From Bryobacterales bacterium (GTDB lineage Bacteria; Acidobacteriota; Terriglobia; Bryobacterales; Bryobacteraceae), in contig CAWCVR010000001.1 in NCBI GenBank assembly GCA_963799105.1, forward strand, positions 1,032 through 65,031: a stretch of DNA of 64,000 nt, read 5' to 3'. Below the pieces are notes generated by a model. That model saw nothing but the letters and a program-made list of their open reading frames with translations, was not told the origin of the DNA and made no database searches. Below are positions 28,428 to 32,833 of this stretch, piece after piece. Positions within the stretch are counted from its first letter, which is position 1; each line of letters opens with the position of its first letter. A program made the position numbers and the translations under genes.

Positions 28428-28572
28428 GTGGACACCGGGCGGTCAGCCAAATCTCACGACCGCCGCCATCGAAGCTTTCTTCCGAAACGCTGAACTTCAG
28501 CCTTGCCTTCCGGGGGCACAAGAGTGATGAATCGTCATGCGCGGATCAACCGCCGAAAGGACAAGCAAAACG

Positions 28573-28928
28573 ATGAAGACCAACACCGAAGCCACCCAGA
28601 ACGAAGCCACAGCCGCCGCCGTTGCGGAACAGGGCGCGAACGCCGCGCCGGAGCAGGCCGCCGCGACGAAGAAGGCCACCAGCAAGAAGGGCGCGCCCAA
28701 GGGCCAGAAAGCAGCCAAGAAAGCCGCCTCCAAGAAGGAAGCCAAGCCCGCCAGCAAACCCGCCGCAAAGAAGGAGGCGAAGCCCGCCAGCAAAAAGGCC
28801 GTCAAAGTGAAGGGGCCCAAGGTGCCGCGCGAGTTCTCGAAAAAGAGCATCGTCCTGGACCTCCTGCGCCGCCCCAAGGACGGCGCGACGATGGCCGAGA
28901 TCGCCAAGGCCACCGACTGGCAGAACCA
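28573..28928 (+). pseudogene. 5' part of a DUF3489-type gene (Lys/Ala/Pro-rich N-terminal tail) interrupted by a RIT element
   Basis: From ATG 28573 the peptide has ..AKKAASKKEAKPASKPAAKKEAKPASKK.., then 'SKKSIVLDLLRRPKDGATMAEIAKATDWQNH'. The frame then enters the element's inverted repeat. Confidence 0.7.
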
Positions 28929-29017
28929 TTATGCCGACGTCCGGATTATGCCGACCTGTGTTGGCAACCCGGCCTGTGGGGCGGGGATCGCTGCGATGGA
29001 GTCGGCATAATCAGAGA
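28927..29017. repeat. RIT element inverted repeat, left copy (91 bp)
   Basis: It matches the reverse complement of 32187-32277 at 86/91 positions. It contains the 11-mer ATTATGCCGAC twice in direct and once in inverted orientation. Confidence 0.85.
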
Positions 29018-30000
29018 GCCTCGAGGAAGGCGAGCAGTTTGTCGGTCGGTCGGAAACGGCCGGGTTTTGTCTCTATCGGAGCTGTCTTGTCCAGAGCGCG
29101 TTCCTTGATCTCCAGATCCGCGTGTAGATAGATTTGGGTCGTCTCGATCTGTTCGTGGCCGAGCCAGAGTGCGATCACCGAGGTGTCGATGCCGGCGCGC
29201 AGCAATCGCATGGCGGCTGAATGCCGCAATACGTGCATGGTCACCGATTTTTGTGCCAGCGCCGGACAAGCGTCGGTGGCTTTCCCGACGTATTTGGCAA
29301 GCCTGTGCTCCAGAGCATCCCGGCTGAGTCTTCTTCCAGTCTGTGTGCTGAACAGCGGGGCTTCTGGCTGACCGGCCCGCTCGGCCAGCCAGGAACGCAA
29401 GACGGCGACTGTGCCCGAGGTGAGCGGCGTGATCCGTTGCTTTCGTCCCTTCCCATTGCAACTCACATGCGCACCGGTTCCGAGATGGACATCGGCGCAG
29501 CAAAGGCCGGTCAGTTCAGACGCCCGAAGGCCGGTCTGGACAGCGAGGCTGAACAGGGCGGTGTCGCGCCGCCCGGCCCACTTCGACCGATCGGGCGCGG
29601 CGAGCAAGGCGTTGATTTCCGCCTCGGTCAGGAAGGTCACGAGCCGTCGCTCGAAGCGTTTTGGTGGAATGGCAAGAACGCGCTCGATGGCAGAAGCATG
29701 CTCTGGATGCCGCAGCGCCGCGTATCGAAACAGGGAACGGATGGCAGCAAGCCGCGCATTGCGGGTGCGCACGCTGTTCTTTCTCTGCTGTTCCAAGTCG
29801 TTGAGGAAGGCGCCGACCAGCGGAGCATCAAGATCGCCGATATCCAGCTTGCTTGGCGCATTGCCTTTCCTGTCTGATGCGAAGACCAGCAACAGCCGCA
29901 GGGTATCCCGATATGCACAGAGCGTGTTCGGGCTGACCTGACGCTGAAGGACGAGGCGATCAGTGAAGAACGCCTGCAAAGTCGTGGCAAGTGCGGTCAT
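29011..30000 (-). CDS. Tyrosine recombinase, third gene of the trio (RitC position)
   Basis: 329 aa. It has a C-terminal catalytic region '..VLRHSAAMRLL..GHEQIETTQIYLH'. An ATGA overlap joins it to the middle gene. Confidence 0.8.
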   Translation of the reverse strand: MTALATTLQAFFTDRLVLQRQVSPNTLCAYRDTLRLLLVFASDRKGNAPSKLDIGDLDAPLVGAFLNDLEQQRKNSVRTRNARLAAIRSLFRYAALRHPEHASAIERVLAIPPKRFERRLVTFLTEAEINALLAAPDRSKWAGRRDTALFSLAVQTGLRASELTGLCCADVHLGTGAHVSCNGKGRKQRITPLTSGTVAVLRSWLAERAGQPEAPLFSTQTGRRLSRDALEHRLAKYVGKATDACPALAQKSVTMHVLRHSAAMRLLRAGIDTSVIALWLGHEQIETTQIYLHADLEIKERALDKTAPIETKPGRFRPTDKLLAFLEAL

Positions 30001-30935
30001 GCGTCACCTCCAAGGTGGCGCTCAAGCCGATCGCCGGCCAACCCCAGCAATTCCGGTGCGGCCGAAAGATACCAGTAGGTATTGGCAGGGTCGACATGGC
30101 CGAGATAGGTTGACAAGATCGCCATGCGGGTCCCGGGTTCGCCTGCCTTGTAGCCATCAATGATGGTGTTGACGGCGAAGCCATGTCGGAGATCATGGAT
30201 CCTCGGCCTGCATGCGGCCGAACGTGGTGAGATACTGCAATGGCGCAGCAGTTTCTGGAATGTCGGCATCACGTTGTTGTAGCGCAGTCGCCTGCCTGCA
30301 GAAGACGACAGCAATGCCGACGTGCCCGCCTGATGAGGACGATCATTGCGGCGCAAGTAGTCCTGCAGTGCCGTGACCACGGTTGGGTGCAACGGCAATT
30401 CGCGCAGCTTGCCGAATTTGCCATTGCGGATCGTGAGCAGGCCATTGATCGCGTCGAAGTCATCGCTGTCGAGGCCGATCGCCTCTCCGACTCGCATTCC
30501 GGTTGCCGCCAGCACGCCAATCAGTGTCCGATACGTTGCCTGCAAGTGGGACCCGCGCACGATCGCTGTCGCCGACATCAGGTTCGAGATTTCGTGTGGC
30601 GAGTAGAGGTACGGTGTTGCTCTGCGCGTTCGACCTGGCAGGATACCCATTGGCGGCACCTGGGTGGCAGGGTCGAGCCCATGGAGGTGTCGGGCGAAGA
30701 TACGAACTTCGGCAAGTCGCCTGGAAGTCCAGCTTGCGTCGGCGCCTGCGGGGAGACTTGCCCAGGCCAGCGCAGTTTCGGTTGTCAGACATTTTTCGCC
30801 GCGATTTTCGACGAAGGAAACGAACTGGCCGAGAAGTCGCTCTGTTTTGTCGAGCTTGTAACCAAGGGCGCGACGCATGGCCAGATACTCTGTGAGAGCT
30901 TGGCGAAGGGCGCTCATTGGACGTCTCCCGGCCAT
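29997..30935 (-). CDS. Tyrosine recombinase, middle gene of the trio (RitB position)
   Basis: 312 aa. It has '..IHDLRHGFAV..' and '..LGHVDPANTYWYL' (R..HxxR..Y signature). It overlaps the first gene by 22 nt. Confidence 0.8.
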   Translation of the reverse strand: MAGRRPMSALRQALTEYLAMRRALGYKLDKTERLLGQFVSFVENRGEKCLTTETALAWASLPAGADASWTSRRLAEVRIFARHLHGLDPATQVPPMGILPGRTRRATPYLYSPHEISNLMSATAIVRGSHLQATYRTLIGVLAATGMRVGEAIGLDSDDFDAINGLLTIRNGKFGKLRELPLHPTVVTALQDYLRRNDRPHQAGTSALLSSSAGRRLRYNNVMPTFQKLLRHCSISPRSAACRPRIHDLRHGFAVNTIIDGYKAGEPGTRMAILSTYLGHVDPANTYWYLSAAPELLGLAGDRLERHLGGDA

Positions 30936-32134
30936 GGGCGCGCAATCGTGCGCAAGCCGTTACGGTCGACCTTCGCATAGATCGCTGTCGTCCCGGCACG
31001 AACGTGACGCAAGAGTTGACCGATTTCCGGTAGTGACGCACCGGTACGTAAAAGTTGCGTGGCTGCGGTATGGCGCAGGCGATGCGCGTGGACGCGCCCG
31101 AGATCGGCCCTCCGTGCGGCATCCGCCACGATCGTGCTCACGCGAGTCGGAGTGAGATGGTGATAGGGAGCGACGCATCTTACGAATACGGCCCGGCCCT
31201 GTGCGTTCATGGGGCGGGCCTGTTCCAGGTATTCGACCAGCCTGAGGCCGACGTCCTGCGGCAAGGGAATGCGTTCTACACAGTTTCCCTTGCCGCGCAC
31301 TACGATCGTGCCCGCTCGCCAGTCGATATCGTCCAACATGAGCTTTGCGACCTCGCCGCGTCGTAGTCCCAGCCGGACCAGCAGGGTCAGAACGGCAAGG
31401 TCCCGACAGCCGACGGGGGTATTTGCATGGCATGACGCAAGTAGGCGCTGAACCTGATCGGGCTCAAGTCCCTTGGGCAAACCCACCAATCGACGACGGG
31501 CAACCGATGGCACGGCGCAGACGAGCGATCTTTCCGTGATGCCTTCAAGATGAAGAAAGCCAAGGAACGACCGAAGCGCCGTGACTGTCAACTTCGCCAT
31601 GCCGCTGGTTTGGCGAGGACACCGCGCCACCACAAACGAGATGATATCGGCCGGGCTCAGGTTGCCAAGCTCCAGGGCAAGGCCATCTGCAGAATTCCTG
31701 CTATCCAGAAATGGGCGCAGGCGATTGACATACCCCTCGACCGTAGTGGCTATCAAGGAACGCTCCATGGTCAAAAAGCGCCGATACCGGTCCAGAATTA
31801 TGCTTGCAGGGCCTTCGCGCACAGGCGCCTCAAGGGGAGGAGCCAGCTTCAGCCGGTGGAGATAATCAAGGATCGGACGCAGGGTCATGTGCGTCTTGTG
31901 TCTAGCGAAGCCTGCGGATCTACGGTCGCGTAAGAAACGATCCGCCAGTCTGAATGACAGATCGCCCGCGGTTAATTCCTGGGCCTGCAGCCAATCGCTC
32001 AGATCGGCAAACAGTCTCTTCTTTCTGTGAACGGTACTTGGTGGGTATCCTTGCTGCAGCAGTTCGCCTTCAAAGCCCTGCAAAAGGGCGTCGCGTGAGC
32101 ATACGGCCGGTGTTTCGATGGGTTTGACCAACAT
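30914..32134 (-). CDS. Tyrosine recombinase, first gene of the trio (RitA position)
   Basis: 406 aa. It has '..HAHRLRHTAATQLL..' and '..LLRHVRAGTTAIYAKV'. Confidence 0.8.
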   Translation of the reverse strand: MLVKPIETPAVCSRDALLQGFEGELLQQGYPPSTVHRKKRLFADLSDWLQAQELTAGDLSFRLADRFLRDRRSAGFARHKTHMTLRPILDYLHRLKLAPPLEAPVREGPASIILDRYRRFLTMERSLIATTVEGYVNRLRPFLDSRNSADGLALELGNLSPADIISFVVARCPRQTSGMAKLTVTALRSFLGFLHLEGITERSLVCAVPSVARRRLVGLPKGLEPDQVQRLLASCHANTPVGCRDLAVLTLLVRLGLRRGEVAKLMLDDIDWRAGTIVVRGKGNCVERIPLPQDVGLRLVEYLEQARPMNAQGRAVFVRCVAPYHHLTPTRVSTIVADAARRADLGRVHAHRLRHTAATQLLRTGASLPEIGQLLRHVRAGTTAIYAKVDRNGLRTIARPWPGDVQ

Positions 32135-32186
32135 GAAAACTCCTCTTCTAGGTTTGAAAGAGGAGACCGTAGCACGTGGTCAAACG

Positions 32187-32277
32187 TCTCTGATTATGCC
32201 GACTCCATCGCGGCGATTCCCGCCCCACAGACCGGGTTGCCAACGCAGGTCGGCATAATCCGAACGTCGGCATAATG
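32187..32277. repeat. RIT element inverted repeat, right copy (91 bp)
   Basis: See the left copy. An extra palindrome CCTTATGCCGA-tg-TCGGCATAAGG made from the same motif follows at 32280-32303. Confidence 0.85.
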
Positions 32278-32307
32278 CGCCTTATGCCGATGTCGGCATA
32301 AGGCCCA

Positions 32308-32413
32308 CAGCATCCGGGGCTTTATTTCCGGCAACCTGATGAAGAAGATGGACCTGCCGGTCGAGTCCTTCAAGAACGAGGCCGGCGAACGCACGTATCG
32401 CCTTGCCAAGTAG
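32308..32413 (+). pseudogene. 3' part of the RIT-interrupted DUF3489-type gene
   Basis: The frame reads (H)SIRGFISGNLMKKMDLPVESFKNEAGERTYRLAK* with its stop at 32411-32413. It continues the 28573-28928 frame once the element is removed. Confidence 0.7.
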
Positions 32414-32430: not shown

Positions 32431-32461
32431 GCCGCCAGCCGCGAGGTTGGCGGCTTTTCTT
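32431..32461 (+). terminator. Rho-independent terminator after the DUF3489-type gene
   Basis: Stem GCCGCCAGCC, loop gcga, stem GGTTGGCGGC, then TTTTCTT. It is nearly identical to the hairpin at 32852-32884. Confidence 0.6.
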
Positions 32462-32521
32462 CGGCTTCCCGCGATTATTCGCTTGATGTTCCGCGCGACC
32501 GGAGTGATGAATCGAGGTGCC

Positions 32522-32833
32522 ATGAAACATACCACCAAGAAGCAGCAGAAACAGACGCCCACCAACGGGTTCGCAATCCCGCTGACGGACACGACCGACT
32601 TGGGCCTCGCGATGCTGATCGCGGAATCCGAAGACGGCCAGTACGAGCCGGTGGGAGTCGTATGCAGCATCGGCGAGGCGCGCGAGATCGCGGAGAGCGA
32701 CCTCAAAGGCCGGATGCGCCGCCTGGATCGCGACCAGGATCCTGGCCTTTGCCCCTACACCTACAAGGTCTGGGCCAACGGGATCGACGGCGACTACCGC
32801 ATCGCCATTGAACTAACAGCCACCAAACTGTAG
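32522..32833 (+). CDS. Hypothetical small protein (103 aa)
   Basis: ATG 32522 lies 5 nt after GAGGTG. The peptide reads MKHTTKKQQKQTPTNGFAIPLTDTTDLGLAMLIAESEDGQYEPVG... A terminator follows. Confidence 0.6.
   Translation: MKHTTKKQQKQTPTNGFAIPLTDTTDLGLAMLIAESEDGQYEPVGVVCSIGEAREIAESDLKGRMRRLDRDQDPGLCPYTYKVWANGIDGDYRIAIELTATKL

Follow-up and report, generated by a model that had tools for sequence, protein, structure and literature searches.

Introduction

Recombinase-in-trio (RIT) elements, as known from C. metallidurans CH34, C. necator pHG1 and S. fredii pNGR234a, consist of three overlapping genes in the order A-B-C, span about 3.4 kb between flanking inverted repeats, carry no cargo and occur in multiple copies per genome. 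Their published inverted repeats are short, 28-51 bp (Van Houdt 2012, PMC3414803; Smyshlyaev 2021, PMC8138268; PMC10214605), their target specificity is listed as "NT", not formally tested (PMC10214605), and convincing binding sites are not reported (PMC3414803). Two sequential core-binding domains mark RitA and an extra conserved C-terminal helix marks RitC (Smyshlyaev 2021, PMC8138268), and pHG1 has been named as RIT-rich (Van Houdt 2012, PMC3414803). Here we describe a RIT element that interrupts a DUF3489 gene of a prophage in a Bryobacterales bacterium (assembly GCA_963799105.1, contig CAWCVR010000001.1, positions 1,032 to 65,031); the whole stretch of 64,000 nt that was analysed is called the window, and all coordinates without a genome handle refer to it. 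The element and its relatives share with the known RITs the three overlapping genes in A-B-C order, the total length, the presence of flanking inverted repeats, the lack of cargo and the occurrence in multiple copies per genome, as well as one-to-one matches of the three recombinase subfamilies.

Results

The insert and its genes

The insert and the two halves of its host gene comprise the following features.

28537-28928, plus strand: 5' part of the interrupted DUF3489 gene, starting at ATG 28537 or ATG 28573 and ending ..GAC TGG CAG AAC CA (D W Q N H-)
28923-28928, plus strand: target 6-mer GAACCA, the proposed overlap (crossover) region, present as a single copy in empty sites
28929-29017, unstranded: left (RitC-side) terminal inverted repeat, overlapping the ritC stop codon
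28929-28938, 28946-28955 and 29001-29010: putative arms of the left repeat, namely the terminal TTATGCCGAC, the second direct arm and the inverted GTCGGCATAA
29011-30000, minus strand: ritC, 329 aa, with the catalytic R..HxxR..H..Y residues and a conserved C-terminal tail, RFRPTDKLLAFLEAL
29997-30935, minus strand: ritB, 312 aa
30914-32134, minus strand: ritA, 406 aa, predicted to have two N-terminal four-helix bundles followed by the catalytic domain
32120-32190, minus strand: ritA leader stem-loop with its inner stem at 32140-32165, pairing the GAGGAG ribosome-binding site and the AUG
32187-32275, unstranded: right (RitA-side) terminal inverted repeat
32194-32203 (plus), 32249-32258 (minus) and 32266-32275 (tip, GTCGGCATAA): putative arms of the right repeat
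32276-32281, unstranded: spacer 1, TGCGCC, whose reverse complement GGCGCA is a target-type 6-mer
32282-32301, unstranded: terminal palindrome of 20 bp, TTATGCCGA-TG-TCGGCATAA, i.e. TTATGCCGAT followed by GTCGGCATAA
32302-32307, unstranded: spacer 2, GGCCCA, a target-type 6-mer unlike the local target GAACCA
32308-32413, plus strand: 3' part of the DUF3489 gene, encoding (H)SIRGFISGNLMKKMDLPVESFKNEAGERTYRLAK and a stop

The insert (28929-32307) is 3379 bp long and consists of ritA, ritB and ritC, without cargo genes, between 91-bp inverted repeats. The three tandem recombinase genes of 406, 312 and 329 aa, with overlaps of 22 nt (ritA/ritB) and of the 4 nt ATGA (ritB/ritC), were recovered exactly where the original prediction, made from the window's letters, had placed them. 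All three proteins match Pfam Phage_integrase (E-values 1e-20 to 1e-35) and have XerC and XerD as their top NCBIfam models, at scores below the model cut-offs, and the catalytic motifs can be read in RitA (LRRGE, HRLRH, LLRH, IYAKV), RitB (MRVGE, HDLRH, YLGH, TYWYL) and RitC (LRASE, HVLRH, WLGH, IYLH). The RIT identity that had been proposed for the trio was borne out by BLASTP against two annotated reference trios, those of C. necator pHG1 and S. fredii pNGR234a: the proteins paired one to one with RitA, RitB and RitC at 188-352 bits (A-A 214-231, B-B 188-238, C-C 275-352), as against at most 75 bits between types, and the A-B-C gene order is identical to that of the references.

Sequence and structure prediction also bear on the features that mark RitA and RitC. 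An AlphaFold2 model of RitA, built on a 14-sequence alignment and with a mean pLDDT of 78, predicts four-helix bundles at residues 14-94 and 109-196 upstream of the catalytic domain; Pfam detects the second bundle only, and no Pfam domain was found in residues 1-111 of RitA or 1-112 of RitB. RitC continues for about 33 residues downstream of its catalytic Tyr, and in sequence comparison the tail RFRPTDKLLAFLEAL is kept in the RitC of pNGR234a as RFRPDDNLLAFLNSL and in a more distant copy (G039). Upstream of ritA, the leader folds at -28 kcal/mol (z = -4.9), gives a terminator-like match and has a U-run after the stem, which is conserved in a close copy (G013); like similar structures in some insertion sequences, the stem-loop may keep read-through transcripts from being translated. 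Judged by its sequence, 28929-32307 is a genuine, intact RIT element.

The interrupted gene and its empty sites

Removal of 28929-32307 rejoins the host gene, as had been predicted, to give ..ATDWQNHSIRGFISGNLMKKMDLPVESFKNEAGERTYRLAK and a stop (alternatively shown as ..ATDWQNHSIRGFISGNLMKK..RTYRLAK and a stop). The rejoined protein matches DUF3489 over profile positions 3-67 of 68 with 72 bits, compared with 35 bits for the 5' half alone, and the insertion point is the His codon of the motif WQxH^S(I/V)RGF (here and below the caret marks a junction). The trinucleotide CCA, noted earlier at both borders, is indeed present at 28926-28928 and 32305-32307, and the deletion boundaries can therefore slide by three bases. 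The host gene corresponds to the phage gene phrog_10315 and adjoins two terminase genes, one for the small subunit (phrog_57) and one for a large subunit of GpA type, in agreement with the prophage location suggested before; the insertion inactivates this phage gene.

Uninterrupted homologues align across the junction. An intact paralogue in the window's own genome (G000:C11:681-1158) has 81% DNA identity to the 5' part in the window, and its unoccupied site, GACTGGCAGAACCACAGCATCCGGGGCTTC, is identical to the rejoined window sequence over 30 nt. In a further genome (G024) an intact gene is accompanied by the window's upstream leader and downstream 128-aa gene and represents a syntenic empty site. 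Because of the identical C11 site and this syntenic empty site, the two halves in the window belong to one gene. The empty-site sequence is GACTGGCA GAACCA CAGCATCC (..TGGCA GAACCA CAGC.., site string GGCAGAACCACAGC). In a close relative's genome the C11-type gene is occupied instead.

A PDB sequence search with the DUF3489 protein gave low-complexity matches only, and a literature search on DUF3489 gave one unrelated mention only. As a separate observation, a box GAGTGATGAATCG stands just upstream of both the DUF3489 gene and the next gene (128 aa, 32447-32833), in the window at 28519-28545 and 32495-32525. The intact C11 and G024 loci have the box too, and it may serve the phage as a signal for regulation or translation.

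Repeated insertion at one codon

Relatives of the element were collected in two samples. For the first, 185,579 species genomes were searched with the RitA protein and both junctions of the copies were aligned; for the second, the repeat tip alone was searched in 241 million metagenome records, a search without flank bias that yielded 104 stretches, with 82 tips that have 50 nt of upstream sequence. Close copies (RitA 89-99% identical) occurred in the first sample in Bryobacterales/Terriglobia assemblies only, among them a genome with six copies in different paralogues (CAWJGZ, handle G184) and one with two copies of 95% DNA identity to the window element (G013). The window's own genome holds the C11 empty site and, though another RIT lineage is present, no further copy of the window RIT was found there, giving one copy in total.

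In the first sample every DUF3489 5' half joins the repeat tip directly, as ..TGGCA-nnnnCA^TTATGCCGAC, and all 3' halves (12/12) join as GTCGGCATAA-TGnnnn-TTATGCCGAY RTCGGCATAA-nnnnCA^(C/T).., where the CA together with the next base restores H(S/T)(I/V)RGF. Even the seemingly foreign site of copy 1 in G013 is a decayed DUF3489 remnant (LKELRSRQDWHPH vs LKELRKATGWQAH). The metagenomic tips gave the same picture: 41 of the 82 abut ..WQxH 5' halves, which vary greatly in sequence and show 16 different 6-mers, and 32 abut the palindrome, 28 of which continue into H[ST][IV]RGF 3' halves, so that approximately 84% of the tips abut DUF3489 halves at the WQxH codon. Five tips belong to a sublineage in genes with a WQRCRVH^FMRN motif, and the remainder are odd or degenerate. 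As read from these junctions, the position of insertion is not chance, the lineage sitting almost always at the DUF3489 WQxH codon. The empty sites, the near-identical copies across sites and genomes and the contigs seen to terminate exactly at element tips likewise argue, at the sequence level, that the element is mobile as a unit.

The occupied DUF3489 genes have 68-81% DNA identity and very different flanks. Similarity between the elements thus far exceeds that between their host genes, which indicates that insertion at this one codon took place independently and many times over. A single ancient insertion into a DUF3489 gene that was inherited vertically with its prophage family, without any target specificity, might be considered, since DUF3489 genes belong to phages or mobile elements and spread in their own right, and the window genome has one copy only of this RIT. 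It is nevertheless very improbable in view of elements that are 89-99% identical in genes that are only about 68-81% identical, of at least 16 6-mers and very different flanks, of six copies in different paralogues of one genome, of the syntenic empty site in G024 and the identical unoccupied site on C11, and of the C11-type gene that is occupied in a close relative.

Both orientations of the interior occur, and in one locus (L055) the interior is flipped relative to the window and the palindrome lies on the RitC side. Together with the 95% identity of the 91-bp repeats, this would suit a switch that controls the DUF3489 gene by inversion, as shufflons or fim do, and is no transposon at all. 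We give such a switch next to no credence: neither orientation restores the reading frame, the element is found in many unrelated genes and in other phyla, with related lineages in transposase, helicase and ArdC-like genes, and empty sites and scars exist.

Three side observations concern individual copies. In the sublineage (metagenome contigs L095, L101, L141, L105 and L158) the tip is the same and the palindrome, TTATGCCGACGTCGGCATAA, is perfectly symmetric; its WQRCRVH^FMRN genes are read as putative IS256-family transposases. Contig CABEDF010000063.1 (L098:1259-1814) carries a 556-bp internally deleted RIT derivative between two different DUF3489 5' halves, made up of both repeats and about 370 bp from the 3' end of ritC and lacking any intact recombinase gene. 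In the CAWJGZ assembly the RitA match of four copies (L045-L048) is 1213 nt long, which is not divisible by three, and a stop lies within the L045 translation; this is either a shared frameshift, i.e. inactive copies, or a long-read homopolymer error.

Architecture of the element ends

The 91-nt inverted repeats (28927-29017 and 32187-32277) match at 86/91 positions, exactly as first described, and the 11-mer ATTATGCCGAC occurs twice in direct and once in inverted orientation in each, a layout that was likewise confirmed. In the 64-kb window this 11-mer has six exact copies and one with a single mismatch, all seven within the element ends, compared with 0.78 copies expected by chance and none of 100 shuffles reaching seven. 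On sequence grounds the 11-mers are better read as 10-bp, dif-like putative recombinase arms, and paired arms GTCGGCATAA and TTATGCCGAC are always separated by exactly 6 bp. The transitions from element to target fall at the borders of these spacers.

The extra palindromic pair reported for the right end is real and is located exactly at 32282-32301. The 91-bp repeat is not by itself the putative functional right end, which comprises the repeat, 6 bp, the palindrome and another 6 bp. Spacer 1 and its flanking arms form a complete dif-like core, GTCGGCATAA-TGCGCC-TTATGCCGAT. The integrated state shows three core-like sites in the window: the left junction, in which GAACCA separates the target arm from the element arm; the inner core, with TGCGCC between the repeat tip and the left palindrome half; and the right junction, where GGCCCA stands between the right palindrome half and the target arm.

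CCA had also been proposed as the crossover core. It is not a general core. CCA closes a central region of 6 bp, nnnnCA, on its 3' side, and of this region the lineage keeps only CA constant; CCA is thus simply the 3' part of the 6-bp overlap that GAACCA and GGCCCA have in common. An alignment of the target CTGGCAGAA with the arm TCGGCATAA, which would give a 3-bp overlap, was rejected, as other targets lack GAA and the spacing misfits the junctions.

The palindrome invariably lies towards the 3' half of the target. Its centre is CA or TG (17 and 12 cases), not the perfectly palindromic CG, and is common to copies in many genomes. Because this asymmetric centre is shared among copies, the sequence argues that the palindrome is inherited together with the element and not made anew each time. 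As a further observation on the repeats, either of them, when joined to the 5' half, adds the same repeat-encoded 26-aa tail, YADVRIMPTCVGNP(A/V)CGAG.AAMESA with a stop, to the truncated DUF3489 protein (28929-29010 in the window).

Six-base sequences beside the element

Every 6-mer of the first sample has CA as its last two bases (or TG as its first two, read from the other strand). The four other bases are not random. Among 30 DUF3489-type 6-mers between palindrome and repeat in the metagenome set, 25 are found among the 16 6-mers of the 41 clear 5'-half junctions, and nearly all have as their first base, which is the third of the Gln codon, a G or an A. Where both junctions of an element could be read (n = 10), the left and right 6-mers are identical in four and different in six. 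The window belongs to the latter, with GAACCA as target 6-mer and GGCCCA on the right; its flanks are syntenic and not chimeric, and since the 6-mers differ all the same, the right-hand one probably came with the element.

Possible donors are present for several of these foreign 6-mers. Copy 1 of G013 carries ATCGCA, which is rare, and GGCACA, a pair identical to the one that flanks copy 2, and this donor-to-recipient match fits coupling. In the six-copy genome most foreign 6-mers recur in the left flanks of other occupied sites (GCCGCA and GGCCCA do so, not GAAGCA, for which no donor was found among the copies seen in that genome). To judge from these matches, the 6-mers that border the palindrome resemble coupling sequences which the element brought along from sites occupied before. 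None of the 32 palindrome-bearing metagenome tips showed a circle or tandem junction (tip-6-palindrome-6-tip).

Identical flanking 6-mers, as at L039, L045, L047, a Haliangiales copy and the second RIT of the window's own genome (on C13), could also be taken for a true 6-bp target-site duplication left by cut-and-paste or replicative transposition, with mismatches due to later mutation or to recombination between copies. We consider this improbable. The element encodes three tyrosine recombinases only and no DDE, HUH or serine enzyme, and tyrosine recombinases do not synthesise DNA; moreover, the 6-mers differ in six of the ten elements, the syntenic flanks of the window show that its mismatch did not come from shuffling between copies, and the foreign 6-mers are of target type and not random mutations.

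Palindrome scars

If the left junction recombined with the inner core, the trio would be freed and a palindrome plus 6 bp would be left behind, a remnant that had been predicted before it was scanned for. Among 301 genomes of the order the palindrome was present in five only. In the six-copy genome one of seven palindromes is solo and lies in a RIT-free DUF3489 gene (L081), where a 26-bp scar sits at the WQxH codon: GGC TGG CAA AAG CA^TTATGCCGACATCGGCATAA GGCCCA^CAC CGT CCG CGG GTT. A second solo palindrome belongs to another lineage (L076, G284:C15:136446, G106-type), and its left flank is also that of the L050 RIT.

Solo palindromes in RIT-free genes could also mean that the palindrome and one 6-mer are a separate 26-bp mini-element, two terminal arms tail to tail that are moved in trans, or a pre-existing landing pad, with the RIT proper inserting beside it and the left arm of the palindrome serving as half of the target. 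A palindrome stands at every 3'-half junction, none having been seen without it, and a site of the form B-O-TTATGCCGAC would provide one perfect arm. On the other side, the asymmetric centre is common to copies of many genomes, solo palindromes amount to only one of seven in the six-copy genome, and the scar is the exact remnant expected from excision at the inner core. We regard a mini-element or landing pad as rather unlikely, less so than the explanations dismissed above; it is the same chemistry and compatible with the favoured reading.

Other RIT lineages

The layout of 6-mer, repeat to repeat, 6-mer, palindrome and 6-mer is also found in other RIT lineages.

Haliangiales RIT: RitA 40% identical, CTCGCA on both sides
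Gemmobacter RIT: same end layout
G039 RIT (L079, G039:C1:~909300-909440): in an ArdC-like gene, with TTATGCCG-type arms
G106 RIT (L077, G106:C3:~2262900): inserted at the Walker A (GKT) codons of a gene for an SNF2-type helicase, with TTATGCCG-type arms
Second RIT of the window's own genome (G000:C13:303525-306975): RitA, RitB and RitC 35%, 33% and 46% identical to those of the window

The C13 RIT has arms TTATGTAC../..GTACATAA, a terminal palindrome TTATGTACAC followed by GTGCACATAA, and TTCCGG on both sides; from its translated flank it lies in the ..RKNW.. codons of an IS66-type transposase gene. Arm sequence and conserved coding target are particular to each lineage, and the target invariably lies within a gene of another mobile element. 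Because each lineage aims at a conserved coding motif, the distribution suggests that RITs may be parasites of other mobile elements, i.e. of phages, insertion sequences and conjugative elements. A truncated copy lies at the same kind of site as the C13 RIT on C18 of the window's own genome (G000:C18:9540-10350).

Discussion

In our assessment the window probably carries an intact RIT that was integrated by tyrosine-recombinase site-specific recombination into the WQxH^S(I/V)RGF His codon of a prophage DUF3489 gene, using dif-like cores and with coupling sequences. The recombination sites would be cores of two inverted 10-bp arms around a 6-bp overlap, and the joined-end (circular) form would hold the palindrome between two mirror-image cores. 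Either core could recombine with the target and place the interior in either orientation, and since both mirror-image cores would be usable, both orientations are expected with the palindrome always on the 3'-half side. The overlap would have to match at CA only, the other four bases being free to differ, and each move could therefore carry the previous target's 6-mer along.

Several points weigh against this reading. Its mechanistic steps are drawn from static junctions, and the target arms (..GGCTGGCA on the left, CAGCATCCGG and also CAGCATCCGGGGC on the right) are unlike the element arms. CA was forced by the search pattern in the metagenome set, and its constancy thus relates to the smaller set found by protein search. 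Two loci, L037 and L042 (the latter G013:C1:6631739-6635088), lie between two inverted 5' halves without a palindrome, and L041 lies between two inverted 3' halves with two palindromes; these look like secondary rearrangements, inversion or deletion, between RIT copies. The odd G013 copy is read as the product of such a deletion or inversion between two copies, and of its reciprocal product neither a second palindrome nor DUF3489 3' halves were found in the G013 genome. If the interpretation of these three loci holds, RITs would be drivers of genome rearrangement. Furthermore, the flanks of L044, L050 and L154 fit no explanation given here, and most of the sequences are metagenome-assembled, some chimeric flanks possibly being misassemblies, although about 100 independent contigs show these junction types again and again.

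More tentatively, and with distinctly less confidence than in the reading of this locus, a general model can be entertained in which RITs are motif-homing, Xer-like integrative elements. Their joined ends would present two mirror-image cores around a palindrome, the overlap would be checked at one dinucleotide, and each move would write down the four variable bases of the previous target, resulting in a travel log of donor sites. Labour might be divided such that one recombinase binds the identical element arms and the other two the two unlike target arms, which, if true, would settle the old question of why a four-strand reaction employs three recombinases.

RITs are a known type of element; the target homing and the site architecture of this lineage were found in no accessible paper, though Ricker 2013, the main descriptive RIT paper, may cover part of them. 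The locus and about 100 relatives provide a target defined to the base pair (WQxH codons in the DUF3489 genes of phages), a clear layout of the sites, with arms of 10 bp, overlaps of 6 bp and a terminal palindrome, and natural empty sites, occupied sites and scars, a material sufficient for the design of a direct transposition assay and usable for annotating RIT boundaries and the genes they disrupt. A poorly understood class of transposons thereby gains a defined target and a testable mechanism. Compared with the RITs known so far, this lineage differs by one defined target codon, by 91-bp repeats with arrays of 10-bp arms, by a terminal palindrome and 6-bp spacers, and by a host phylum, Acidobacteriota.

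With the Xer/dif system the element shares simple Xer-like recombinases, for which XerC and XerD are the best NCBIfam models, and inverted arms ending ..CATAA and TTATG.. around a 6-bp centre: the proposed RIT core is GTCGGCATAA-N6-TTATGCCGAC, and E. coli dif is GGTGCGCATAA-TGTATA-TTATGTTAAAT, similar in geometry and partly so in sequence. Unlike Xer/dif, the RIT brings three recombinases of its own and targets a coding motif, not the chromosomal dif, and no evidence was seen of FtsK or host Xer participation in RIT movement. As a side observation, the window's own genome has a dif-like site, AGGCCACATAA-CGCATA-TTATGTGGCGC, at G000:C2:349970, directly beside an Xer-like recombinase gene (~348624-349448), which may be the host's dimer-resolution site or another integrative element.

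With Tn916, CTnDOT, Tn554 and the strand-biased circularizing elements the lineage appears to share overlaps that are not identical between donor and target, the right 6-mer often being the left-flank 6-mer of another site. CTnDOT has a 2-bp homology requirement, which the constant CA dinucleotide of the RITs recalls. In Tn554 and the strand-biased circularizing elements, 6 bp are copied from the left flank (PMC10214605). Unlike these coupling transposons, the RIT relies on three recombinases of other families, is without cargo, conjugation genes or an Xis-like or TnpC-like gene, and combines symmetric ends with a terminal palindrome and two alternative cores.

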